Below are positions 1 to 11,053 of a stretch of 11,053 nucleotides of DNA, piece by piece. Source of the DNA: a virus (lineage: Duplodnaviria > Heunggongvirae > Uroviricota > Caudoviricetes); IMG/VR virus record IMGVR_UViG_2585427766_000020, positions 1 through 11,053 of that record; one strand, given 5' to 3'. The first letter of the stretch is position 1; the number at the start of each line of letters is the position of its first letter. Made by a program: the position numbers and the translations under genes. Under the pieces are notes generated by a model. The model made no database searches. It saw only the letters and a program-made list of their open reading frames with translations, and was not told the DNA's origin.

Positions 1-273
1 CCGACTGCGGCCTGAGTTTTTTAAGTGACGTAAAATCGTGTTGAGGCCAACGCCCATAATGCGGGCAGTTGCCCGGCATCCAACGCCATTCATGGCCATA
101 TCAATGATTTTCTGGTGCGTACCGGGTTGAGAAGCGGTGTAAGTGAACTGCAGTTGCCATGTTTTACGGCAGTGAGAGCAGAGATAGCGCTGATGTCCGG
201 CGGTGCTTTTGCCGTTACGCACCACCCCGTCAGTAGCTGAACAGGAGGGACAGCTGATAGAAACAGAAGCCAC
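1..273 (-). CDS. insA: IS1 InsA (transposition regulator), 91 codons; stop codon lies just outside the window
   Basis: Minus-strand translation from GTG at 271-273 gives [18 protein letters not shown]...[12 protein letters not shown], matching InsA as I remember it. The 90-302 ORF in the supplied track is a different frame and is not InsA. Confidence 0.88.
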
Positions 274-301
274 TGGAGCACCTCAAAAACACCATCATAC
301 A

Positions 302-1096
302 CTAAATCAGTAAGTTGGCAGCATCACCTGAAAACGCTTTGTGGATTTTACCCATTTCTTCGACTTTTGCAGCACGCAGTTGATCCATTACTTTGTCATA
401 AGAGAATCCAGAAGAGTAGATACGATACCCTTTCAGAAACTTTTCATGCAGACGCTGAATATTGTCCAGTAAATAAGCGAATACTAGAGGTGAATCAATT
501 CCATCACTAACTGCTTGGATACTTTCAATCAGAATATCTAGCTTCTGATCCTTATGGGTATCATCATTGAAACAAGCTATAAGGTTATCAAGATACTCTC
601 TTTGCAAATTTTGTACATTTTCTGCAGCGAAGTGCGGTAATAGCTTGATAACTTCTTTTTTCAGAAAAACTAACTGACAAGTTGAGTTATCAAAGTAGGC
701 CGCGGCCTCTTTTAGCAGGTTAACGAACTCGAGAATCTTCCGGTAGTTGCTGATGAAAACGGGGATATCTTCATCATCATTACGAAACTTTGTTTCTAGG
801 ATGAAGTAATTAGCTGGCTCAAGGCACTGATGCTTTGGAGCATTTAGCAATTTTTCATGGGTGGAAAACACAAGTCCCAGTCCACTCCGTGGTGACGTCA
901 CACGTAGGATGATCGTGTTACCTGGAGCGATAGTGCCTGTATCAATAGAAAGACCATATTCACGAGGATCATCAAGCAAAGTATCAACCAGATCACAATC
1001 GGACTGATCTAAGAGCAACAGCGAACCGACACGAAACCCCTCTTGGAATTCCATACGACGATACAGATCTGTCAGCATCTCAAATGAAATCGCCAC
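302..1096 (-). CDS. Hypothetical protein, second gene of the YejK-like operon; C-terminus truncated by IS1 (last 8 codons GDAANLLI + stop are encoded by the IS1 repeat)
   Basis: GTG start at 1094-1096 with GAGG Shine-Dalgarno 7 nt upstream, 2-nt gap to the upstream gene's stop (translational coupling). Low GC. No domain recognisable by eye. 302-328 is IS1 sequence. Confidence 0.7.
   Translation of the reverse strand: MAISFEMLTDLYRRMEFQEGFRVGSLLLLDQSDCDLVDTLLDDPREYGLSIDTGTIAPGNTIILRVTSPRSGLGLVFSTHEKLLNAPKHQCLEPANYFILETKFRNDDEDIPVFISNYRKILEFVNLLKEAAAYFDNSTCQLVFLKKEVIKLLPHFAAENVQNLQREYLDNLIACFNDDTHKDQKLDILIESIQAVSDGIDSPLVFAYLLDNIQRLHEKFLKGYRIYSSGFSYDKVMDQLRAAKVEEMGKIHKAFSGDAANLLI
306..328 (-). 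repeat. IS1 terminal inverted repeat (insA-proximal end, 23 bp)
   Basis: Direct read: atcagtaagttggcagcatcacc on the + strand, the reverse complement of the IS1 IR. Confidence 0.9.
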
Positions 1097-1098
1097 GA

Positions 1099-2106
1099 TT
1101 AAACCTCAGTCATCCACATTTCCCTAAATTCTTCAGGTACATTACGTAGGGTGATAATATTTGTTTCCGGATCATAATCAATATAGCCTTCAGTTTTCCC
1201 TTCCCGGTCAAACTTAAGTTCCCAATATTTAGACTTGCCTTTAAAAGATACCAGAGCCCGAATGACTCGACCATCAGGAACGAAGCCATCCGATAACTCC
1301 AACTCTTCAGCAGCAAGTTTACCAGATAACTCCTCGGGAGCCTGGGGCCAAATGGCATTAACAAGGGTTTCAAGACTAAGTGGTTCACCAGCCTTACTTA
1401 GTGCATGTAAGTGTTCAAACGCACTCTTAAGAAATGCATCTTTTTCAGCGCCGTCAAGTCCTTTCTCTGCCGCAAATGCTTTTAAAACGTCACGTAACTT
1501 TTCAGACTCTCGTTTGGCGATTAAGACATCATTACAGCCGAGGAACTGTTTAAAATAGTTTGAAACATTACCTTGCCCCTTAAGAAAACTGATATAGCGC
1601 TCTGCGCCACTTTCCCACGCGGTTAAGTCAATGCGCCCAGCCATACGCAGCTTAGCAATATCAAGATAGGTACTATCTTGGATGTTAAAATCATCTGTGA
1701 CAGTGGATCCAATGGTAGCGCTTACAATAGCTATCAACAGGTGTTCATTGTGTCCTATCACGATATTTGCAAAAAGAACATAACCACCAGTAGCCATGTT
1801 TTCTCGCTGAGAACGTTCCGTCAGGTGATGCATCATTCGGCAGGAACTTTGGTAGAAATCATCAACACCTTCGAGAAAGTCCCCAGCCATTCGTTCCATA
1901 GGATAGTTATCCGTATCGCCTTCAAAATAGCCATAACCTTTACCTGTGCGTCCTGCATATTTTGCACAAATATCGTTTATAAGGCGCTGGGAGGCTTCAG
2001 TAACTAGACCTTCTTCAGGACTCAATCTCTCAGAAGCGTCTCCATTTTGTTGTTTGTCTAAAATGTGAACTACAACGTGTTTAACTTCAATGGTCTGCTC
2101 AGACAT
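1099..2106 (-). CDS. YejK/NdpA-family (NA37) nucleoid-associated protein homolog, 335 aa, mobile-element-borne divergent copy
   Basis: Same length as E. coli YejK (335 aa). Core TYLDIAKLRMAGRIDLTAWESGAERYISFLKG matches the remembered YejK block [20 protein letters not shown]...RYLTFLKG; C-terminal YIDYDPETNIITL resembles IFWDPATDTLTI. SD AAGGTGGA 6 nt upstream of ATG. AT-rich codon usage unlike the neighbouring phage genes. Confidence 0.8.
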   Translation of the reverse strand: MSEQTIEVKHVVVHILDKQQNGDASERLSPEEGLVTEASQRLINDICAKYAGRTGKGYGYFEGDTDNYPMERMAGDFLEGVDDFYQSSCRMMHHLTERSQRENMATGGYVLFANIVIGHNEHLLIAIVSATIGSTVTDDFNIQDSTYLDIAKLRMAGRIDLTAWESGAERYISFLKGQGNVSNYFKQFLGCNDVLIAKRESEKLRDVLKAFAAEKGLDGAEKDAFLKSAFEHLHALSKAGEPLSLETLVNAIWPQAPEELSGKLAAEELELSDGFVPDGRVIRALVSFKGKSKYWELKFDREGKTEGYIDYDPETNIITLRNVPEEFREMWMTEV

Positions 2107-2176
2107 TAGCTATCCACCTTATTTTTTATTGCTTAATGGCAAATAATTTCTGCTATATGTTCTCGTTAGGAACACA

Positions 2177-2584
2177 TTAACCCACATTTTTTAACCGCTC
2201 AATCGTTGCGGATAATTCCTTCAGTTGTTTTTCCATCTCAATCACACGCTGTTTTTCTTCAGCGCCTCGCATGAGATCTCGCCGAACCTCAGGATCTAAC
2301 TGGTTTAGAAGTTCAAGCATTTTAAGGTCTGACGGGCTGAATTGATGTTGTGTTGGTACAGCAACAATTTCTTTAGATGGAATATGTTCTTTACCGGTAA
2401 GTAGCCAATCGATCGATACACCCAAATGGGTGCTTAGCGCAACAAGAGCCTCTGCGTTTGGTTCTCTCTCTCCACGCAAATAGTTTTGAAGTGAGCGATA
2501 TGGAATTTTTGATAAGTTAGATAATGCCTTTATTGTCATGCCATTAGCATCCATCACTTCACGCAATCTCTCTTTTGTACTCAT
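2177..2584 (-). CDS. Phage repressor, XRE/CI-type HTH DNA-binding protein (135 aa) with coiled-coil C-terminal half and no S24 peptidase domain
   Basis: MSTKERLREVMDANGMTIKALSNLSKIPYRSLQNYLRGEREPNAEALVALSTHLGVSIDWLL is a typical HTH_XRE fold signature. Leftward, divergent from the early operon. ATG at 2582-2584 chosen over the 2680 start, which would overlap the rightward gene and promoter. Confidence 0.8.
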   Translation of the reverse strand: MSTKERLREVMDANGMTIKALSNLSKIPYRSLQNYLRGEREPNAEALVALSTHLGVSIDWLLTGKEHIPSKEIVAVPTQHQFSPSDLKMLELLNQLDPEVRRDLMRGAEEKQRVIEMEKQLKELSATIERLKNVG

Positions 2585-2600
2585 TTGAACATATCTCAAT

Positions 2601-2628
2601 TTGACACACTCATTTGGGTGTGTACAAT
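2601..2628 (+). promoter_or_regulatory. Sigma70-type early promoter for the rightward operon: TTGACA (2601-2606), 16-bp spacer, TACAAT (2623-2628)
   Basis: Near-consensus hexamers read directly, about 45 bp upstream of the Cro/Ner-like start. Confidence 0.55.
2604..2623. promoter_or_regulatory. Candidate repressor operator: inverted repeat ACACAC-N8-GTGTGT inside the early promoter spacer
   Basis: Perfect 6-bp arms read directly; lies between -35 and -10 where a repressor would occlude RNA polymerase. Confidence 0.45.
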
Positions 2629-2672
2629 AGACCCAATAGAGTACATCATAACCTAACAGGAACACGGTGCAT

Positions 2673-2897
2673 ATGAACAAACAACAAGTTCGGGCACGGC
2701 TGGTTGAACGAGGCAGTAGCTTGCGCCAGTTCGCGCTTAACGCGGGCTATGAACCACGAACAGTCACCCAGGCAGTCAGTCGCTGGGCTGGTAAAAGTGA
2801 ACTACCTCGCGGTCGTTTGACTTATCGGATTTTGCGAGATCTATCGGTTGCAATAGGTAAAGAAGTTACCCCCGGTATCCTTAAGGAGGCGTCATGA
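2673..2897 (+). CDS. Cro/Ner-like small DNA-binding protein (about 74 aa)
   Basis: First rightward gene after the switch. RLVERGSSLRQFALNAGYEPRTVTQAVS resembles the Mu Ner HTH region in pattern. ATG 2673 preferred; GTG 2667 is an alternative. Stop overlaps the next start (ATGA at 2894-2897). Confidence 0.6.
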   Translation: MNKQQVRARLVERGSSLRQFALNAGYEPRTVTQAVSRWAGKSELPRGRLTYRILRDLSVAIGKEVTPGILKEAS

Positions 2898-3202
2898 ATA
2901 AACCAAATACATCAAGCTCAGGTACCCGTATTTTGCGCGTTCTTAAGGCCTTACGTGGCCACGCTTTGAACGGTGTTTCTAACGGGGAACTAGCGGTTGC
3001 ACTGCACGAATCACCGGCAAACATCAACCGGGCACTTAACACGCTCATTGAAGAAGGGTTGGCTCTGAAACTAGAAAACGGGCGTTTCGCACCAGGCATC
3101 CAGTTGCTGCAGATCGCCATGGCCCACAGTAACGAGATGGCACGTGCACAGGATCGCATTAACGAAATCAACCAACGTGTTATTTCAGGTAGTCGTTTGT
3201 AA
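2894..3202 (+). CDS. Winged-helix HTH DNA-binding protein (102 aa), hypothetical
   Basis: Strong SD AAGGAGG at 2883-2889. ILRVLKALRGHALNGVSNGELAVALHESPANINRALNTLIEEGLA looks like a MarR/IclR-type wHTH. Confidence 0.6.
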   Translation: MNKPNTSSSGTRILRVLKALRGHALNGVSNGELAVALHESPANINRALNTLIEEGLALKLENGRFAPGIQLLQIAMAHSNEMARAQDRINEINQRVISGSRL

Positions 3203-3212
3203 GGAGTAATCA

Positions 3213-4124
3213 ATGGGACGCACCAAATCACCGGTTAGCACTGAACTGAACGTCGAGGTACCGCTGTCGGATGATCTCAATGTCAGTCTAAACGCCATGA
3301 CACAGCATCGCATGGAAATCATGCAACAGTTCGGCGATGGTCTGCCCTATGAGCGCGATCGTGTTGTCCATGAGGCACGCTTTTATATGGCACAGAGCGC
3401 TGAGGCCATGCTGGAGGCAGGTAAGCGGCTGATAATCCTTAAGGAAAATGAACCACACGGGGAGTTTATAAAGATTCTTGAAAGTGAGTTGGGGCTGGCA
3501 TACCGGACATCTGTGAGAATGATGCAAGCATCGACAAAATACTTATCCCCGGCGCTGAAACCAAATGTGCCAACGTTGGCACATTTGGGAAAAGCCAAAC
3601 TTTTCGAATTAATGACAGAAGACGACGAAGAGCTTGCCGAACTGGCCGACGGCGGCACAGTTGCCGGCCTGACGCTTGACGACGTTGATCGCATGTCAGT
3701 ACGTGAATTGCGTCAGGCCCTGCGCGAAGCGCGCGAAACCAACGCAGCACAACAGCGCGTACTCGCTGACAAAAATGAAAAAATAGACTCACTCTCCACC
3801 AGACTGGAGAAGAAATCCCGTATTCAGCCGCCTGAGCCTGATGAAGAGGTTAAGAAGCTGCGGGCGGAAGTGACAGCATTAGCGGTTGAGGCGGAATCTG
3901 CTATCGCCGTTCGACTGTCCAGCGCTTTTGAGACGCTGTGCGCATATTGTGCTGAAAACATGATTGATACCCCCAGAGACTTCATGGCAGGCCTGGTCTG
4001 TCAACTGGAAAGCACAGCGCGTAGCCTGCGCTCCACATTTGACCTGCCGGATGAGCCAACAGGCAATGCCGCGCCTTCATGGCTGACTGAGCCGACGCCA
4101 CAGATTAACGGGCTGGAGGCATAA
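3213..4124 (+). CDS. Hypothetical coiled-coil protein (303 aa) located between the regulators and the transposase
   Basis: SD AAGGAG at 3201-3206. Long intact ORF in the operon; C-terminal half has heptad-like charged repeats. No family confidently recognised. Confidence 0.6.
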   Translation: MGRTKSPVSTELNVEVPLSDDLNVSLNAMTQHRMEIMQQFGDGLPYERDRVVHEARFYMAQSAEAMLEAGKRLIILKENEPHGEFIKILESELGLAYRTSVRMMQASTKYLSPALKPNVPTLAHLGKAKLFELMTEDDEELAELADGGTVAGLTLDDVDRMSVRELRQALREARETNAAQQRVLADKNEKIDSLSTRLEKKSRIQPPEPDEEVKKLRAEVTALAVEAESAIAVRLSSAFETLCAYCAENMIDTPRDFMAGLVCQLESTARSLRSTFDLPDEPTGNAAPSWLTEPTPQINGLEA

Positions 4125-4127
4125 CCA

Positions 4128-5897
4128 ATGAATGCTGCCCTGACTGAACGACTGGTTTATGTCGCCCGCGCGGCACGTGACGCGGGGCATGGTAAACGCG
4201 GTGCAATATACGACGCTGCCTGTGCTGAACTTGGCATGTCCCGCGCCACTCTGCTGCGCAGGCTGAAGGAGGTCTCTGTGACTGATAAACGCAAAAAACG
4301 CGCTGATGCCGGACGCAGCGCCCTGACCCGCGACGAAGCCGCGCTGATATCTGCCACACTGCGTGAGGCCACCCGCAAGAACGGTAAGCGTCTCTATTCC
4401 ATCGCGGATGCAGTGGAAACCCTGCGGGCTAACGGCTTTATCTCCGCAGGCAGAACAGATGAAACCACCGGTGAGTTTTTCCCGTTGTCCGAAGATGCCA
4501 TCAGTCGTGCCCTGCGTAACTATGGCCTGCACCCGGAACAACTGGATGCTCCTGCGCCGCATACCGAAGTGGCCAGTCTGCATCCCAATCATGTCTGGCA
4601 GATTGATGCCTCGCTCTGCACGCTTTACTACCTGAGCAATGGACACAAAGGGCTGCAGGTGATGGACAGCGCGAAGTTCTACAAGAACAAACCCGCTAAC
4701 CTTGCCCGTATCGCCAGTGACCGCGTGTGGAGTTACGAGATTACCGACCATGCCAGCGGCTGGATTTACGTTGAGTATGTGACGGGTGCGGAATCCGGTG
4801 AGAACCTGTGTTCTGTGCTTATCAACGCCATGCAGGAGCGTGGCGGCGCAGACGTGCTGCACGGCGTGCCAAAAATACTCTATCTCGACCCCGGTTCGGC
4901 AAACACCGCGGGTATGACGAAAAACATGTGCCGCTCACTGGGCATTGACCTGATAGCGCACAAGCCGCATAACGCCCGCGCCACCGGACAGGTGGAAAAG
5001 GCGCGTGACATTATCGAACGCAAGCTGGAGCCGGGTCTGAAGTTCCGGCCGGTTCACAGTCTGGAAGAACTCAACGCGCTGGCCGCGAAATGGCGCAGCC
5101 ACTTTAACGCCACGGCTGTTCACAGCCGCCACGGTAAAACCCGCACGGATATCTGGCTGAAGATTACTGCTGAGCAGCTGAAAAAAGCGCCTTCCGTTGA
5201 GGTATGTCGTGAACTGGCTGTGGCGGCACCAGAACTCCGCAAAGTCACGCCAAAACTTCGTGTCTCGTTCCGGGGCACTGAATTTGACGTATCAACGGTA
5301 CCGGGCGTACTGGTCGGTGAAAAACTGATGATTACCCGTAACCCGTGGCGCAGCGATGTGGCACAGGTGGTTCTGACCGGTGAGGACGGCCACGAGACGT
5401 TCTTCCTGGTCGAAGAGGTCAGAAAGAACGAGTTTGGCTTTGCTGAAGGCGCGGCGGTATTTGGCGAAAGTTACAAAGCCCTGCCGGAAACCCCGGCGCA
5501 GATGGCGGCAAAAGAAACCGAAGCGCTGGTCACCGGTACAGACAACGCCGCAGATGCAGCTGCCGCACGCAAGGCGAAGGCGCTGCCGTTCGGCGGGCGG
5601 CTTGACCCGTATAAACATATTGATGACGCCACACTTCCGGCCTATATGCCGAAGCGAGGTCAGGCCTCTGACGTACGCGGACCGCGCACTGAACAGCGTC
5701 CCATGACTCATGTGGAGGCCGCGAAAGCCCTGCGCGGGAAGTTCAGCGCCAACGGCCTTACCTGGACGCCGGAACATTACCGCCAGTTAACGGCACAGTA
5801 CCCGGACGGCGTACCGGAAGCCGCACTGGATGAAGTCATGGCCACGCTGACCACGCCGGCCCGCAGCAGTGTTATCAGCATTGTTAACGGCAACTGA
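4128..5897 (+). CDS. DDE transposase of a transposable phage (Mu A-like, rve/integrase-core family), 589 aa
   Basis: SD GGAGG at 4115-4119. HPNHVWQIDASLCTLYY is typical of the first catalytic-Asp region of rve-type transposases. Followed by a B-like ATPase and by gam, gemA-like and mor. Confidence 0.8.
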   Translation: MNAALTERLVYVARAARDAGHGKRGAIYDAACAELGMSRATLLRRLKEVSVTDKRKKRADAGRSALTRDEAALISATLREATRKNGKRLYSIADAVETLRANGFISAGRTDETTGEFFPLSEDAISRALRNYGLHPEQLDAPAPHTEVASLHPNHVWQIDASLCTLYYLSNGHKGLQVMDSAKFYKNKPANLARIASDRVWSYEITDHASGWIYVEYVTGAESGENLCSVLINAMQERGGADVLHGVPKILYLDPGSANTAGMTKNMCRSLGIDLIAHKPHNARATGQVEKARDIIERKLEPGLKFRPVHSLEELNALAAKWRSHFNATAVHSRHGKTRTDIWLKITAEQLKKAPSVEVCRELAVAAPELRKVTPKLRVSFRGTEFDVSTVPGVLVGEKLMITRNPWRSDVAQVVLTGEDGHETFFLVEEVRKNEFGFAEGAAVFGESYKALPETPAQMAAKETEALVTGTDNAADAAAARKAKALPFGGRLDPYKHIDDATLPAYMPKRGQASDVRGPRTEQRPMTHVEAAKALRGKFSANGLTWTPEHYRQLTAQYPDGVPEAALDEVMATLTTPARSSVISIVNGN

Positions 5898-5907
5898 GGA
5901 GGAAAAC

Positions 5908-7074
5908 ATGCTGGTACTGAAGCAGCAACTGAAAGAGGCCCGTATTTCACAGGCGGTGGTGGCGAGAGCTGTCGATGTTTCTGAGGCCACGCTGGCCCAG
6001 ATTGTGAATCATAACGCGTGGCCCCGCACCAGCCCCGGAGAAGTGCGCCGGCGTCTTGCGTCCTGGCTGGAAAGTCAGGGGATTGATACAGCGAAGAGTT
6101 TTGATGCTGTACAGGGCGCGGCCACGCCCCGTACATCGGGTACCACAGATAAAACGAGCCTCAGTGAGGAAGAGAATATGTTACTCAAAAAACAGGTGTT
6201 ATTTCCAGCAACCAAAAAAGCGTTTGGTCTTTTCCGTGACCCGTTCGCCGACGAAGCCATGCAGGGTTCTGATGATGTGTTCACCACCCCGGACATTCGC
6301 TACGTGCGTGAGGCGTTGTACCAGACAGCACGTCATGGTGGGTTTATGGCCGTCATCGGTGAGTCCGGTGCGGGTAAATCCACGCTGCGCCGTGACCTGA
6401 CTGAACGTATCAACCGCGAGAATGCGCCAGTGATTGTTATCGAGCCATACATCATCGCTATGGAAGACAACGATGTGAAAGGGAAAACTCTGAAGGCAGC
6501 AGCGATTGCCGAAGCCATTATCAGTACCATCGCACCACTGGAAAGCATCAGACGCAGTCAGGACGCCCGCTTTCGCCAGTTGCATCGCGTCCTGAAAGAC
6601 AGCAGCCAGGCGGGGTTCAGCCACGTTCTGGTGATTGAGGAGGCCCACAGTCTGCCCATTCCGACACTGAAACACCTCAAACGCTTTTTTGAGCTGGAGT
6701 CCGGTTTCAAAAAACTGCTGTCCATCGTGCTAATTGGTCAGCCGGAACTGGCGACAAAACTGTCTGAACGCAATATGGAAGTCCGTGAAGTCGTTCAGCG
6801 CTGTGAGGTGGTCGAACTTCTGCCTCTGGACAATAACCTTGAAGAATTTCTGACGTTCAAACTGCAACGGGCCGGTAAACAACTGACGGACATTATGGAC
6901 GCCAGCGCAGTGGATGCCATACGTGCCCGCCTGAGCAATCCGGGAAGTCATCGTAAAAATATGGTCAGCCTGCTGTATCCGCTGGCCGTCAGTAACCTGG
7001 TAATAGCCGCCATGAATCTGGCTGCTGAAATCGGGGTTCCACAGGTCAACGCTGACGTTGTCAAAGGGGTTTAA
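5908..7074 (+). CDS. AAA+ ATPase, transposition target-DNA activator (Mu B-like/TniB-like), 388 aa
   Basis: SD GAGGAGG at 5896-5902, ATG 5908. N-terminal HTH-like segment, then Walker A GESGAGKST and Walker B-like HVLVIEEAH. Sits immediately after the transposase as in Mu A-B. Confidence 0.8.
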   Translation: MLVLKQQLKEARISQAVVARAVDVSEATLAQIVNHNAWPRTSPGEVRRRLASWLESQGIDTAKSFDAVQGAATPRTSGTTDKTSLSEEENMLLKKQVLFPATKKAFGLFRDPFADEAMQGSDDVFTTPDIRYVREALYQTARHGGFMAVIGESGAGKSTLRRDLTERINRENAPVIVIEPYIIAMEDNDVKGKTLKAAAIAEAIISTIAPLESIRRSQDARFRQLHRVLKDSSQAGFSHVLVIEEAHSLPIPTLKHLKRFFELESGFKKLLSIVLIGQPELATKLSERNMEVREVVQRCEVVELLPLDNNLEEFLTFKLQRAGKQLTDIMDASAVDAIRARLSNPGSHRKNMVSLLYPLAVSNLVIAAMNLAAEIGVPQVNADVVKGV

Positions 7075-7076
7075 TA

Positions 7077-7346
7077 ATGAAATCCACCACAGGTATCAAC
7101 CAGCAAATCAGCAAAGTGCAGTCAGCCATTATGGCGCTTAAGGCGACGAACACGGATGTACAAAGCATCACCATCAGGGGGAACAAACCTGTCATCCGCG
7201 TTTCCCGGAGTGCGCATTGCATGCGCATGCTTGAGCAGGGAAAGGCCTGTTATCTGTATACCGGACATGACCACAGGGGATATTTCCGTCAGGGCGTTTT
7301 CGAACTGCACGGCTGTCGCGTCGTGTGGCCGGAATCTTTGTGGTAA
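7077..7346 (+). CDS. Hypothetical early protein (89 aa)
   Basis: Intact ORF 2 nt after the B-like stop, same strand and operon. No family recognised. Confidence 0.5.
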   Translation: MKSTTGINQQISKVQSAIMALKATNTDVQSITIRGNKPVIRVSRSAHCMRMLEQGKACYLYTGHDHRGYFRQGVFELHGCRVVWPESLW

Positions 7347-7373
7347 TCAGCACAACCGGAGAAATCATAAAAA

Positions 7374-7904
7374 ATGGCAAAAAGTACAAAAGGTGCAAAA
7401 CGTATCAAGGCCGCAGCAGCACTCTGGGTGCCGGGGACACGTGAAGAGGTCATTGAGGGCATCAGACTGCTCGGTGACGCACACCGTGAACTGGTCAGGG
7501 CTGAAACAGAAATGAATGACGCCATTGGCGATATCACCGCACGTTATGCCCCGCTCACCGAGAGCCTGAAAAAACGCATGGCCGAACTGCAGTCCGGTAT
7601 TCAGACATGGTGTGAGGCACACCGTGATGAACTGACCGGCAACGGGAAGGTGAAGTTCGCTAACCTCACCACCGGCGAGGTGCAGTGGCGAAACCGTCCG
7701 CCATCAGTCAGTATCCGTGGGGCGGATAATGTTATTGAATTACTGAGACGTCTGGGGCTTGAGCGCTTTATCCGTGTAAAGGAGGAAATAAATAAAGACG
7801 CTATCCTGAATGAAAAGGACGCCGTGAAAAATATTCCCGGTATTACCATAAAAAGTGATATTGAGGATTTTTCAATAATTCCTTTTGAGCAGGATGTGCA
7901 GTAA
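7374..7904 (+). CDS. gam: Host-nuclease inhibitor protein Gam (Mu Gam family; binds DNA ends, protects against RecBCD)
   Basis: 176 aa. Blocks ETEMNDAI, WCEA.RDELT, PPSVSIRG and GIT.KS.IEDFSIIPFEQ match Mu Gam (174 aa) as I remember it. Confidence 0.9.
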   Translation: MAKSTKGAKRIKAAAALWVPGTREEVIEGIRLLGDAHRELVRAETEMNDAIGDITARYAPLTESLKKRMAELQSGIQTWCEAHRDELTGNGKVKFANLTTGEVQWRNRPPSVSIRGADNVIELLRRLGLERFIRVKEEINKDAILNEKDAVKNIPGITIKSDIEDFSIIPFEQDVQ

Positions 7905-8001
7905 ACACACCACGTTAATTATTTAATAAAAACATTTTCTTTTTTATTCCGGCGTCAGCGCCGTGGGCTTCTGCACGCCGGAAACAGAGGAGAATTAAAT
8001 T

Positions 8002-8196
8002 ATGATATTTAAATGTATTCAGTGCGAGAGGGATATAACAGCCCTGCGTTTTCACAGCGCCATCGCCGTGATGTCCGGTAAATACCACATCCCTGCGGTA
8101 CGCGTCACCCTGGTCTGCCCGTACTGCAGCCAGCATTTTTCGGCAGACGTGCCCGTCATGGAATTCTCCCGCCCTGACAGGGAGGACTCGCAATGA
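8002..8196 (+). CDS. Small zinc-ribbon-like protein (64 aa), hypothetical
   Basis: Two CxxC pairs (CIQC...CPYC). SD GAGGAG at 7987-7992. Stop overlaps the next start. Confidence 0.5.
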   Translation: MIFKCIQCERDITALRFHSAIAVMSGKYHIPAVRVTLVCPYCSQHFSADVPVMEFSRPDREDSQ

Positions 8197-8465
8197 TTAC
8201 CCCACAGGAAGCACGACAGCGCACCCGAACCCTTGTTGAACACTATGTCAACGAGTGTGAATGCCGCGACCTCACCGATGTGAAGCACGTCCTGACGGCG
8301 CTAATCAGCATGACCGCTCAGGCCATTGTGGCGACCAACGGAAAGGCGGCTGCCCTGCAGGTACTGGTGAACACACTAACCCACACGGCAGCGCATGAGG
8401 TGCCGTACCGGATGGAAACCACTGCAGAAGGCGGTCTGCACATCACCGTCAGCCGGAATCACTGA
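8193..8465 (+). CDS. Hypothetical protein (90 aa)
   Basis: ATGA start/stop overlap with the upstream gene; GC-rich coding-like composition. No family recognised. Confidence 0.5.
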   Translation: MITPQEARQRTRTLVEHYVNECECRDLTDVKHVLTALISMTAQAIVATNGKAAALQVLVNTLTHTAAHEVPYRMETTAEGGLHITVSRNH

Positions 8466-8474
8466 GGGCGCAGC

Positions 8475-8780
8475 ATGACACGGTACACCATACTCACCCG
8501 CACCGCCCTCTACCGTCTGGCCCTGCAGCGTTTCGGGCCGGACGCACAGGCCCTGAAACTGACAGAAGAGGCCGCTGAACTGGCAGCCTGTGCTGCCCGC
8601 AACCTGAACGGACAGGGCAGTGAAAGTGACCTCGCGGCAGAGCTGGCAGACGTGGAAATCATGACAGAGCAGTTGCGCCTTCAGGGGATGGACCGGCTGA
8701 TTGACTTCCACAAACAGAAAAAACTGGAACGCCTTGCCGCACGGCTGGGCGTCATGTACACCGGAGATACTGAACAATGA
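8475..8780 (+). CDS. MazG-like nucleotide pyrophosphohydrolase family protein (101 aa)
   Basis: LKLTEEAAELAACAARNL...ESDLAAELADVEIM resembles the EExxE / ELADV helical signature of small MazG-like all-alpha NTP pyrophosphatases. Assignment from motif pattern only. Confidence 0.6.
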   Translation: MTRYTILTRTALYRLALQRFGPDAQALKLTEEAAELAACAARNLNGQGSESDLAAELADVEIMTEQLRLQGMDRLIDFHKQKKLERLAARLGVMYTGDTEQ

Positions 8781-9460
8781 CAGACTTGGATAAACACATT
8801 GAAAAACTGAAAAAGTTGCTGGCGCTGGCAGCATCCGGCAACCCGTATGAGGCTGCTCTGGCACTGCGCCGCGCCCGTAAACTGATGGATGTTCACGGCA
8901 TCACACATTCCGACATTGCCATGAGTGATATTGATGAAACCATCAGTCATTACTGGCCGACAGGCAGTCTCCGTCCACCGCGCTACATGCTGGGCCTGAT
9001 GAACATCATCCGCGAGGCATTTGGTGTTAACTCCATAATTCACCCCGGCACATATCCGGGTGTGGGGTTCTACGGCAACCGGGAACGGGCCGCACTGGCT
9101 GCGTACACCTGGGAAGTGCTGGCCCGCCAGCTGAAAAAGGCGCGTCAGCAGTATATCAGCGCACAGAACAAAAGAATAAAAACTGCCACCCGTACCAGCC
9201 GTGGTGACCAGTTTGCTGAAGGCTGGGTGCTGGCCGTTATCAGTGAAATACAGTCCTTCGCCCTGACCGATGACGAACGTGAACTGATGCAGCAGTGGCT
9301 GGAACATAAATACCCGCAGACGCAAACCACCAGGGCGCGTAAACCGGGAAGAAGCCGCAATGGCGACGCCTCGCGCTATGCGGGGTTTCGTGAAGGGCAG
9401 AACGTCAGACTGCACCGCCCGGTCAGTGGGCAGGAACAACAGAAACTGGAGGCCAGATGA
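8777..9460 (+). CDS. DUF2786-like phage protein (227 aa)
   Basis: N-terminal IEKLKKLLALAASGNPYEAALALRRARKLM is the characteristic DUF2786 motif, common in Mu-like and other phages. ATGA overlap with the upstream stop. Confidence 0.65.
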   Translation: MTDLDKHIEKLKKLLALAASGNPYEAALALRRARKLMDVHGITHSDIAMSDIDETISHYWPTGSLRPPRYMLGLMNIIREAFGVNSIIHPGTYPGVGFYGNRERAALAAYTWEVLARQLKKARQQYISAQNKRIKTATRTSRGDQFAEGWVLAVISEIQSFALTDDERELMQQWLEHKYPQTQTTRARKPGRSRNGDASRYAGFREGQNVRLHRPVSGQEQQKLEAR

Positions 9461-9687
9461 TTACGCTATCAGGTAACAGCCGGAAATTAAAAGCCTGCCG
9501 AATATCTGCCAGATACCTTTTTGCCCGCGCCTTTTTTAAGAACGTAAGGCCGGGGATCACAATTGGTGTTATTGCCGGACGCGAACAGGTTGAAAAATAC
9601 ATGTCAGGTGCATGGTGGAATAACGACCCTGTCATTGCTGCCCGTAATATTCATATCAGTTGGGGGGATATTCAGAATGACGGCTGA
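9457..9687 (+). CDS. Hypothetical protein (76 aa)
   Basis: ATGA overlap with upstream gene; in-operon ORF. Confidence 0.45.
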   Translation: MITLSGNSRKLKACRISARYLFARAFFKNVRPGITIGVIAGREQVEKYMSGAWWNNDPVIAARNIHISWGDIQNDG

Positions 9688-9892
9688 ATCTGTTGTATGT
9701 GCCCTGTTCTGGTATTGTTTTGTCGGTTGGTGTACTGCTGAACTGCACCGCCGTTCAGGGTTTTATTCACGTTACAGTGGTGCCGGCTACTGGATTAGCT
9801 GGTCGGTGATGTTCCTGTGCTGGCCTGTGGCGCTTCCTTTATATGTCGATTATATCGGTGGCGCAGGTAAAAGGAGCAACGATGATGACTAA
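9677..9892 (+). CDS. Small membrane protein with two predicted transmembrane segments (about 71 aa)
   Basis: Internal ATG at 9677 of the 9563-9892 ORF chosen to minimise overlap. Hydrophobic stretches VVCALFWYCFVGWC and YWISWSVMFLCWPVALPLYV. Confidence 0.45.
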   Translation: MTAESVVCALFWYCFVGWCTAELHRRSGFYSRYSGAGYWISWSVMFLCWPVALPLYVDYIGGAGKRSNDDD

Positions 9893-10334
9893 ACAACGTC
9901 TTATCCAGCTCATTCATATTGCCCGTAATGAACTGGGTATGGATGAAGACACCTACCGCCAGATGTTACAGGGGCTGACCGGTAAAGCCTCAACCAAAGG
10001 AATGGATACCACACAACTAAACTGCGTGCTGGAATCCATGAAAAGGAAAGGCTTTCGCGTTAAGCCTGCCAGAAAAGCCAGCTCCGGTTTACCGCTGGAT
10101 AACCATCCGCAGTCCAGGAAAATCCGTGCGCTATGGCTTGAAATGGCTGCTGCCGGCATTGTTCGTGACCGTTCAGAAAATGCATTAGCGCGGTGGATCA
10201 AGCGGGAAACGGGCATCAGCGCCCTGCGCTGGCTCAATACTGAACAGGCAAGCAGTGTTATTGAGAAACTGAAGAAGTGGCAGCACAGAGCTGCGGGAGT
10301 AAAACATGAGCGACCTGAATCAGTTTCGAAGTAA
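9882..10334 (+). CDS. gemA: GemA/gp16-like protein (Mu-like prophage gp16 family, DUF1018)
   Basis: SD AAGGAG at 9871-9876, ATG 9882. RLIQLIHIARNELGMDEDTYRQMLQGLTGKAS matches the remembered N-terminal signature of the Mu gp16/GemA family. Sits immediately upstream of mor as in Mu. Confidence 0.7.
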   Translation: MMTKQRLIQLIHIARNELGMDEDTYRQMLQGLTGKASTKGMDTTQLNCVLESMKRKGFRVKPARKASSGLPLDNHPQSRKIRALWLEMAAAGIVRDRSENALARWIKRETGISALRWLNTEQASSVIEKLKKWQHRAAGVKHERPESVSK

Positions 10335-10695
10335 AGGGCCGGAACTCCTGGTGGAACTGGCACAGCATACCTCTGAGACCGTTCGCGAGATTATTGATAT
10401 TGAGCCCGCAATTGCCGACCAGATTGGTCAGGCCGTCGCGAACCGCATGATGCAGGTCTGGGGCGGGCAAAACGTTTATTTCCCGATGGGCATGGTATGG
10501 AAGGTCAGTCAGCGCGACCGGGAAATCTTCAGGGAGTTTAACGGACGTAACCACCATGAACTGGCCCGCAAATTTGGTGTTTCGCTTCAGTGGGTCTACA
10601 GCGTGGTTAAGCGGGTAAGAAAAGAAGAACTGGATCGGATGCAGGGCAAGCTATTTGCTGATGAACCCGATGTAGATACGGAGAAAAAAGAGTAA
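10306..10695 (+). CDS. mor: Middle operon regulator Mor (Mor/C family transcription activator), 129 aa
   Basis: Same length as Mu Mor. VYFP and FNGRNHHELARKFGVSLQWVYSVVKRVRK match the Mor/C-family conserved FNGRN...Y and HTH region. Overlaps the gemA-like 3' end by 29 nt. Confidence 0.85.
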   Translation: MSDLNQFRSKGPELLVELAQHTSETVREIIDIEPAIADQIGQAVANRMMQVWGGQNVYFPMGMVWKVSQRDREIFREFNGRNHHELARKFGVSLQWVYSVVKRVRKEELDRMQGKLFADEPDVDTEKKE

Positions 10696-10724
10696 TATCT
10701 GCAATCAGGCTGGAGCGAGTTCTG

Positions 10725-11053
<329 letters not shown>

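Follow-up and report, generated by a model that had tools for sequence, protein, structure and literature searches.

We analysed a stretch of 11,053 nucleotides (nt) from a virus of the class Caudoviricetes (positions 1 to 11,053 of IMG/VR record IMGVR_UViG_2585427766_000020), hereafter the window, with a focus on two genes, ORF1 and ORF2, that lie between a Ner/Cro-like gene and the transposase gene of a transposable prophage. The gene for ORF2, a 303-amino-acid (aa) protein of the DUF3102 family, contains a perfect palindrome of 28 base pairs (bp), and across related phages the sequence of this palindrome covaries with a predicted recognition helix encoded close by. ORF2 very probably binds its own intragenic palindrome as a dimer, and the explanation that best fits the observations as a whole, to which we assign a probability of roughly one half, is that ORF2 and its site constitute an internal cis control element of transposition, a counterpart of the enhancer of phage Mu. 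From four observations computed here, a conserved gene block, the palindrome, the helix covariation and a repressor fusion, we infer binding, dimerisation and an effect on transposition; the palindrome, the covarying helix and the fusion appear to be new. The features concerned are:

2894..3202, plus strand: ORF1, 102 aa, an IclR-type winged-helix DNA-binding domain followed by a C-terminal helix; ortholog of B3 ORF14 and BcepMu gp12
3213..4124, plus strand: ORF2, 303 aa, DUF3102 family, with N-terminal helices, a predicted ParB/KorB-like helix-turn-helix (HTH) domain and a C-terminal three-helix coiled-coil region; ortholog of B3 ORF13 and BcepMu gp10
3456..3542, plus strand: predicted HTH, ORF2 codons 82-110, from the secondary structure of both AlphaFold2 models
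3561..3588, no strand: perfect 28-bp palindrome CCAAATGTGCCAAC / GTTGGCACATTTGG, zero spacer, in ORF2 codons P117-G126, found by a repeat scan; proposed ORF2 binding site
4128..5897, plus strand: TnpA, 589-aa DDE (rve) transposase of the B3/BcepMu (Tn552-related) type; Pfam rve at residues 152-282, phrog_310 at 7.6e-148 over profile positions 129-687 of 696
5908..7074, plus strand: TnpB, AAA+ (AAA_22/ExeA-like) transposition ATPase; AAA_22 at 3.6e-20, phrog_296 at 3.9e-94, RefSeq start at 5908

ORF1, ORF2, tnpA and tnpB stand in a fixed order. An earlier reading of the window, made without database searches (the sequence-only reading), had correctly placed the two genes (2894-3202 and 3213-4124) between the Cro/Ner-like gene and the transposase, and had given the length of the latter, 589 aa. 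The translational linkage that it proposed is borne out by Shine-Dalgarno sites and short intervals: the ORF1 ATG overlaps the stop codon of the ner-like gene (ATGA) and is preceded by AAGGAGG, the ORF2 ATG follows the ORF1 stop by 10 nt and is preceded by AAGGAG, and the tnpA ATG (4128) follows the ORF2 stop by 3 nt and is preceded by GGAGG. The same reading took the pair to be extra genes inserted into a Mu-like operon. The two are instead genes of the lineage, present in the same order in every relative examined; same-position orthologs of both occur in the Pseudomonas phages B3 (ORF14/ORF13), PM105 and SS2019XII, the Burkholderia phages BcepMu (gp12/gp10) and phiE255, a Stenotrophomonas phage, Klebsiella phage KP12 and Escherichia phage PhiKM. 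The pair is standard in B3, BcepMu, phiE255 and KP12. The element is not a Mu derivative with gained genes.

Identity to B3 ORF14 and ORF13 is 56% for ORF1 and 52% for ORF2, and to BcepMu gp12 and gp10 it is 35% and 41%; TnpA is 57% identical to the B3 transposase and 69% to that of BcepMu, and TnpB 55% and 59% identical to the respective ATPases. The four genes follow one another as ORF1-ORF2-TnpA-TnpB in 80 IMG/VR loci and in 55 loci of species-representative genomes (contigs scanned with a profile from a four-sequence alignment), the latter spanning Pantoea, Serratia, Photorhabdus, Xenorhabdus, Brenneria, Pectobacterium, Burkholderia, Bordetella, Iodobacter, Cellvibrio, Moraxellaceae and Rubrivivax, among others. 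The repressor and ner genes that flank the four-gene block are freely swapped and often unrelated. Judged from these comparisons, the ORF1-ORF2 pair is ancestral to the B3/BcepMu-type lineage and not an insertion.

The appeal of the sequence-only reading to Mu gene order, and its comparison of the transposase with MuA (663 aa), are misplaced because the systems, including their transposases, are non-orthologous. We found no MuA domains in TnpA, for which Pfam returned rve only, NCBIfam weak IS481/IS21 matches and the PDB sequence search no MuA; HTH_Tnp_Mu_1, the domain of MuA I-alpha and of the Mu repressor N terminus, had no Pfam match in ORF1, ORF2 or TnpA, with no MuA among the PDB sequence or fold matches. 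The B3/BcepMu transposase type is termed Tn552-related (PMC5977238, PMC8705779). We also checked the simple alternative of gene fission, and found no fusion of an ORF2 homolog to a transposase among the 150 best cluster representatives.

The palindrome in ORF2 lies 540 bp upstream of tnpA, is unique in the window and had 0 matches in 200 shuffles. Nearly every relative carries a palindrome of 24-30 bp at the same codons with a different sequence, and the zero-spacer arrangement is found there in 124 of 145 related loci (scored as matches minus twice the mismatches, and counted at a score of at least 9). Examples, with the centre marked by a slash, are:

KP12: CCAAAAGCGCAAGC / GCTTGCGCTTTTGG
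B3: CAAAACGGACAAC / GTTGTCCGTTTTG
phiE255: CAAAACGGACAGC / GCTGTCCGTTTTG
BcepMu: TTCAAAAGCGGCGTT / AACGCCGCTTTTGAA
Mae-JY22: CCAAAACGGGCGGC / GCCGCCCGTTTTGG

In the complete genomes of B3, BcepMu and PhiKM, the ORF2 palindrome is the longest perfect palindrome and is unique, and no further half-sites (at most 2 mismatches) were found near the genome ends or elsewhere in B3, BcepMu, PhiKM or the intact prophage L001. Related loci amounting to 1.46 Mb contain 101 zero-spacer palindromes whose arms measure 10 nt or more, and 97 of these are the ORF2 site or copies of it.

Sequence variation in the palindrome consists of changes in both arms, a pattern that would also suit a nucleic-acid structure, whether at the RNA level (as an attenuator, a terminator, a ribosome pause or a site for RNase) or as a DNA cruciform, in which case the helix covariation described below would reflect linkage only. 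A predicted RNA hairpin at the palindrome (-24.7 kcal/mol, z = -4.2) points the same way, as does the succession of A-tract, GC-rich stem and T-tract, which resembles a bidirectional intrinsic terminator. We nevertheless consider a structural element improbable. Its would-be loop, the central four bases, is always self-complementary and varies by double changes (ACGT to GCGC and the reverse, AACGTT/AGCGCT, in several backgrounds); single-mismatch variants comprise G.U, A.C, A.A and A.G in similar numbers, with no preference for G.U over A.C; and a terminator scan did not flag the palindrome. The conserved outer TTTTGG is accounted for by the coding sequence, because the 3' arm encodes a conserved Leu-Leu-Gly, and the variable amino acids encoded by the 5' arm are dictated by the complement of the 3' arm. 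Together, a dyad that runs through the centre, double changes and the lack of G.U bias favour a dimer site in double-stranded DNA over an RNA hairpin.

In near-identical prophages (ORF1 93-97% and TnpA 99-100% identical), the divergence of ORF2 is confined to residues ~84-142, that is, to the HTH and the palindrome. We computed covariation on a set of 77 non-redundant combinations of protein segment and half-site. Among the columns not encoded by the palindrome itself, residue 101 showed the highest mutual information, with 1.0 bit shared with half-site position -8 and 1.4 bits with -7; residue 102 shared 1.0 bit with position -4, which is all of the information at that position, and residue 99 shared 1.1 bits with position -5. 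The correspondences are:

Residue 101 and positions -8/-7: Gln with GC (42 of 45), Arg with CG (18 of 18), Val, Ala or His with (G/A)T, Tyr with TT
Residue 102 and position -4: Arg with C (39 of 39), Val, Leu, Lys, His or Met with A (38 of 38)
Residue 99 and position -5: Thr with C (45 of 46)

Residues 101 and 102 occur in 13 pairings, in which each half-site position follows its own residue independently; by our own arithmetic, which takes the 13 pairings as independent units, the perfect partition by residue 102 would arise by chance about once in 1,700. ORF2 columns that are nearer to the site and more variable gave lower mutual information, and this, together with the separate tracking of half-site positions by residues 101 and 102, argues against a purely structural palindrome. 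Applied to two distant metagenomic long-form homologs that were found afterwards, the helix code predicted their half-sites correctly. We considered ORF1 and TnpA as determinants of specificity and rejected both, since both are invariant across different palindromes: an identical ORF1 HTH segment occurs with 8 different palindrome cores, and TnpA remains 98-100% identical across different palindromes. The ORF1 recognition helix is conserved across its family.

The covarying residues fall in the second helix of a predicted HTH. AlphaFold2, run on a 122-sequence alignment, gives an all-helical model of ORF2 (pLDDT 91.5), with helices at residues 20-40 and 48-79, a compact domain at 82-160, and long helices at 163-204, 209-248 and 255-275. 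The predicted HTH comprises a first helix (82-92), a turn at about G94 and the recognition helix R98-T99-S100-V101-R102-M103-M104-Q105. As modelled, the HTH domain (~48-160, with the recognition helix at 98-108) appears to adopt a ParB/KorB-like fold and to resemble KorB. ParB-superfamily HTH domains (ParB/Spo0J, KorB, SopB) bind spacer-less palindromes. The description of the 303-aa protein as coiled-coil in the sequence-only reading suits the C-terminal half (long helices 163-275 in the AlphaFold2 model) and not the N-terminal half, which is helical with an HTH.

We found no ParBc or related Pfam domain in ORF2, whose modelled N terminus consists of two long helices, with no ParB/Srx CTP-binding domain. 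A Foldseek search of the PDB gave no match below an E-value of 0.5, and sequence searches of ORF1 and ORF2 against PDB chains, with the single sequence and with the 122-sequence profile, returned nothing meaningful. MafG, the best PDB match to ORF2 (E = 0.12), was rejected as a relative because the similarity extends to an 'MSVRELR' motif and a coiled coil only, at a compositional or motif level. Separately, residues ~152-170 of ORF2 (window 3666-3719) form a highly conserved segment, LTLDD(V/I)DRMSVRELRxALR, that is weakly similar to the SAP domain in 9 of 122 relatives (best E 0.03) and to the Maf extended homology region (E 0.12). A second small DNA-contacting motif may lie here, or the similarity may be due to chance.

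Three elements carry further copies of their own palindrome: the 'Microcystis phage' Mae-JY22, a Symbiopectobacterium prophage and a Ca. Pantoea bathycoeliae prophage. The two extra copies in Mae-JY22 are perfect (L009 1305-1328 and 1349-1374, 45 bp apart) and lie 2.9 kb upstream, on the opposite strand, inside an unrelated secreted nuclease-like gene in which each encodes a repeated KRAAPPVL. Because this gene is unrelated to ORF2, it is the DNA sequence itself that is kept, and the occurrence of copies in other genes, also in opposite orientation, further argues against a structural element.

For the Symbiopectobacterium and Ca. Pantoea bathycoeliae prophages, it is the leftward repressor gene that contains the second copy. 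The repressor encoded there is a fusion in which a near-copy of the ORF2 DNA-binding region makes up the first ~190 residues (PF11300, 27.7 bits; phrog_1748, 2.4e-77), followed by a Cro/C1 HTH_3 domain. The fusions are located as follows:

L129 1699-2679, minus strand: DUF3102-HTH_3 fusion repressor of a prophage in insect-associated Enterobacterales
L134 1699-2679, minus strand: the same; the fusion is also present in L128 and L132

Two Arsenophonus genomes carry this fusion, and fragments of it are found in Sodalis. Within each element, the fusion repressor shares its recognition helix and palindrome with its own ORF2 ortholog, and four specificities are represented. In phage Mu, a common DNA-binding domain is found in the repressor and in MuA (domain I-alpha), and the two compete for the operator/enhancer region. 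MuA binds the Mu enhancer (PMC5977238). As the fusion repressor carries the domain of ORF2, it should compete with ORF2 for the same site, and by analogy with the Mu repressor and MuA I-alpha the fusion lends indirect support to an enhancer-type or regulatory role of ORF2. The suggestion in the sequence-only reading that the added proteins supply functions of the MuA N terminus thus gains indirect support, from the palindrome and the repressor fusion, in regard to enhancer binding or regulation; end binding does not, there being no half-site near the genome ends, and an anti-repressor pair is not supported.

We propose that ORF1, ORF2, the Tn552-type TnpA and the AAA+ TnpB make up the transposition module as a fixed, translationally linked block of four genes. 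In this module, an ORF2 dimer would read the single palindrome at 3561-3588 through its HTH domain, its C-terminal three-helix region (163-275) supplying dimerisation, partner contacts or both, and ORF1 might act as a partner of constant specificity or as a regulator. Recognition helix and site are encoded ~50 nt apart and would therefore be inherited together, as a specificity cassette, which has at least a dozen types while ORF1, TnpA and TnpB are almost unchanged. The protein-site pair would control transposition-replication, as the counterpart of the Mu enhancer (IAS) and MuA I-alpha, with the latter's function placed on a separate polypeptide. An enhancer-like role accords best with three observations: the pair has a fixed place in the module, the C-terminal domain of ORF2 is conserved, and a repressor has become fused to the DNA-binding region.

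A more sweeping proposal, which we put forward only tentatively and regard as rather doubtful, is that Tn552-type phages do have a transpositional enhancer system, hitherto missing, which is made up of DUF3102 proteins and intragenic palindromes; it would be carried by a separate protein, endowed with private specificities and open to capture by repressors. The correspondence of residues 99, 101 and 102 with positions -5, -8/-7 and -4 would then amount to a simple amino-acid-to-base code, the many private specificities would let each phage activate its own copy only, and repressors would capture the domain to silence transposition.

The same observations bear on a serious rival, unlikely in our estimation, in which ORF2 bound to the palindrome acts as an autoregulatory roadblock that halts RNA polymerase and so limits its own synthesis and that of tnpA, tnpB and the downstream early genes, with no part in the transpososome. 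Intragenic roadblock operators are known, for example that of PurR at purB. The single site within the early operon, downstream of a candidate promoter and upstream of tnpA, would suit such a mechanism, as would the modelled resemblance of the ORF2 fold to KorB, a repressor, and the symbiont-clade repressor that shares the domain and whose sites flank the promoter region in a manner suited to looping or roadblock repression. A roadblock, however, provides no obvious reason for the invariant position of the site by tnpA across distant hosts, and leaves unexplained the large conserved C-terminal domain, which is kept even where the N-terminal domain differs (residues 177-280 match JBD25-type proteins).

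Like the structural element, a role outside transposition is less likely than a roadblock. ORF2 might organise DNA in the manner of ParB or KorB, take part in the lysis-lysogeny decision as an anti-repressor or CII-like factor, or serve host takeover, and adjacency to tnpA would then stem from a compact operon. The predicted ParB-like fold could be read in this way, as could the CII-like gene just upstream in B3 and the rapid divergence of ORF2, the fastest-diverging gene of the block (76-91% identity where TnpA has 98-100%), as if under conflict or incompatibility selection. This divergence, however, is concentrated in the helix-plus-site cassette and is not protein-wide; ORF2 also lacks a ParA partner and a ParB N-terminal domain, and each genome has a single site. 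Moreover, the adjacency to tnpA is maintained in ~145 loci and in the long-form homologs while the flanking regulatory genes vary, and the order ORF2-TnpA-TnpB persists in long-form elements from which ORF1 is missing.

Several points weigh against the enhancer-like pair that we favour. The covariation is confounded by tight linkage and shared ancestry, which inflate such associations; in addition, half-site positions code for residues 117-126, and these could be co-evolving with the helix within the protein itself. Sites are degraded in about 15% of loci, and relatives of the PM105 and SS2019XII type have a diverged N-terminal half and no in-gene palindrome. The distance from the site to the nearer genome end is ~7-8 kb, and that to the promoter ~950 bp; the Mu IAS, in contrast, overlaps operators. 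Contact between ORF2 and TnpA is purely conjectural, a full-text literature search on DUF3102 returned incidental mentions only and no functional work, and, because the window prophage is an IS1-truncated remnant, the ORF2 system may be idle in it. A corresponding full-text search on B3-like phages and palindromes found nothing relevant, the B3 genome paper and Toussaint and Van Gijsegem 2018 being outside its reach.

At the family level, ORF1 matches HTH_IclR over residues 12-57 with 24.8 bits (Pfam cutoff 22; 1.8e-5), in agreement with its earlier designation as a winged-helix protein, and phrog_1368 at 1.7e-44. The IclR C-terminal effector-binding domain (~150-200 residues) had no Pfam match in the 102 aa of ORF1; consisting of a DNA-binding domain of ~60 residues and one helix, ORF1 is therefore not functionally an IclR-type regulator. 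ORF2 matches DUF3102 (Pfam PF11300) over residues 65-172 with 30.5 bits (cutoff 24.4) and phrog_1748 over residues 1-301 at 1.2e-139, and 107 of 122 ORF2 relatives match PF11300. Neither protein matched a well-characterised unrelated family in these domain searches. The ORF2 family comprises 1,649 clusters at 50% identity, nearly all of ~300 aa, and the gene is present in 290 of 5,426 complete E. coli genomes; homolog searches with ORF2 returned nearly all Enterobacterales at 82-100% identity and one Burkholderia protein at 54%, and a search of cluster representatives was used for diversity. Genes of both types have been annotated as hypothetical since 2004, with no function given in the B3 and BcepMu records, and the transcriptome paper on Fc02 states that most early-operon ORFs other than the homologs of transposase A, B, gemA and mor have no assigned function (PMC9936078).

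The module shows several further variations among relatives. A few ORF2 homologs of 430-545 aa (metagenomic P0236, P0314, P0322 and P0299; L148 6001-7599) are extended at the N terminus by ~240 residues, which contain repeated Cys motifs and match nothing in Pfam or PHROG; one such long-form DUF3102 gene lies directly upstream of genes for a 593-aa transposase and an AAA_22 ATPase, and the long-form elements have no IclR-type ORF1 and keep the ORF2-TnpA-TnpB order. An extra segment of ~350 bp stands between the DUF3102 gene and tnpA in L034, L042, L055-L060, L072, L077, L083, L084 and L092 (27544-27861); it is annotated as a 105-aa hypothetical gene in PhiKM, and in several carriers (L034, L055) the C-terminal tail of ORF2 has diverged as well. 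Relatives from Pseudomonas, Stenotrophomonas and Bordetella have, at a conserved position about 215 nt into tnpB, a stem of 9-13 bp that varies in both arms, with a 6-nt loop (CGCCAA-like), at L003 7926-7955, L005 6378-6407, L008 6320-6349, L107 6292-6323 and L007 6336-6359. This stem-loop was not found in the window, nor in BcepMu, phiE255 and the enterobacterial loci checked.

Positions 328-10856 of the window are a prophage sequence present in 18 complete E. coli genomes at 98-100% identity and at differing chromosomal insertion sites. It is the early arm of a B3/BcepMu-type transposable prophage. A related rve TnpA, an ExeA-like AAA+ TnpB, GemA and Mor are all present. The layout expected of such phages, in which early operon and late genes run in opposite directions from a repressor region in the middle and the ends are TG...CA, was recognised from the complete prophage L001, whose holin, lysin, terminase and portal genes are on the left side of the repressor with leftward transcription, and from the prophage end at window 10856. 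PMC5977238 and PMC8705779 describe this layout for the B3/BcepMu type. The leftward genes in the window encode a truncated hypothetical protein, an NA37 nucleoid-associated protein and a Cro/C1-type repressor; the rightward genes encode the Ner-like protein, ORF1, ORF2, the rve transposase, the AAA_22/ExeA-like ATPase, Gam, several small proteins, GemA and Mor. The remaining features are:

1-327, minus strand: end of an IS1 element, with InsA running off the window start; Pfam 4.7e-31 and 1.3e-21
2177..2584, minus strand: Cro/C1-type (HTH_3) lysogeny repressor, divergently transcribed; Pfam HTH_3 at 3.9e-11, Phage_CI_repr, RefSeq start at 2584
2601..2628, plus strand: candidate early promoter TTGACA-16-TACAAT (11 of 12 matches) between the repressor and ner genes; from a consensus scan only, the number of hits in the region being not above shuffle expectation
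2673..2897, plus strand: Ner/Cro-like small HTH protein, first gene of the early operon; phrog_8503 at 5.4e-35, weak HTH_35 and BcepMu_gp16, RefSeq coordinates

The IS1 abuts the prophage at 328 and cuts the interrupted gene to 264 aa, against 401 aa in intact copies; since IS1 stands in place of the left, late-gene arm, the window prophage is a remnant. Its right end is at 10856 (...TCTAATCA), adjoining a host gene, and TCTTCCCAT occurs twice, 20 bp apart (~10785-10793 and 10805-10813) and at most 75 bp from this end, as candidate transposase-binding repeats. In and around the repressor/ner intergenic region, inverted repeats at 2418-2432/2607-2621 and 2576-2587/2634-2645 (ACACCCAAATGGGTG / CACTCATTTGGGTGT, 93% complementary) are possible operators, one arm falling within the spacer of the candidate early promoter, between its -35 and -10 hexamers. 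Beside the repressor, a gene of 335 aa for an NA37/YejK-type nucleoid-associated protein (1099-2106, minus strand, Pfam 1e-80), also present in the intact L001, is unusual cargo for a transposable phage.

B3/BcepMu-type transposable prophages are common, and the present findings give a DUF family a cheaply testable function, with a putative DNA-binding protein, an exact site and specificity residues. They also hint at how a Tn552-type transposase, which is without the N-terminal enhancer-binding domain of MuA, might keep control by an internal site. If the proposal is true, the helix-site code would represent a set of orthogonal protein-operator pairs and offer a handle for mini-B3 or mini-BcepMu transposition tools.

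Among known systems, the closest are B3 and BcepMu, which have the palindrome at the same codons as the window but with a different core and recognition helix; the enterobacterial element differs from B3 in having no CII-like gene and from BcepMu in having no extra gp11. Compared with ParB/Spo0J-parS, KorB-OB and SopB-sopC, ORF2 has no ParB N-terminal CTPase domain, no ParA partner and no detectable sequence similarity, and its system has one site per genome and other flanking helical regions. With the Mu IAS and MuA I-alpha, the proposed pair would share an internal cis site in the early region and a dedicated DNA-binding domain belonging to the transposition module. Unlike in MuA, this domain resides in a separate 303-aa protein with no sequence similarity to the I-alpha winged helix, so that the likeness would be functional only; and unlike the Mu operator cluster, the ORF2 site is one perfect palindrome within a coding region.

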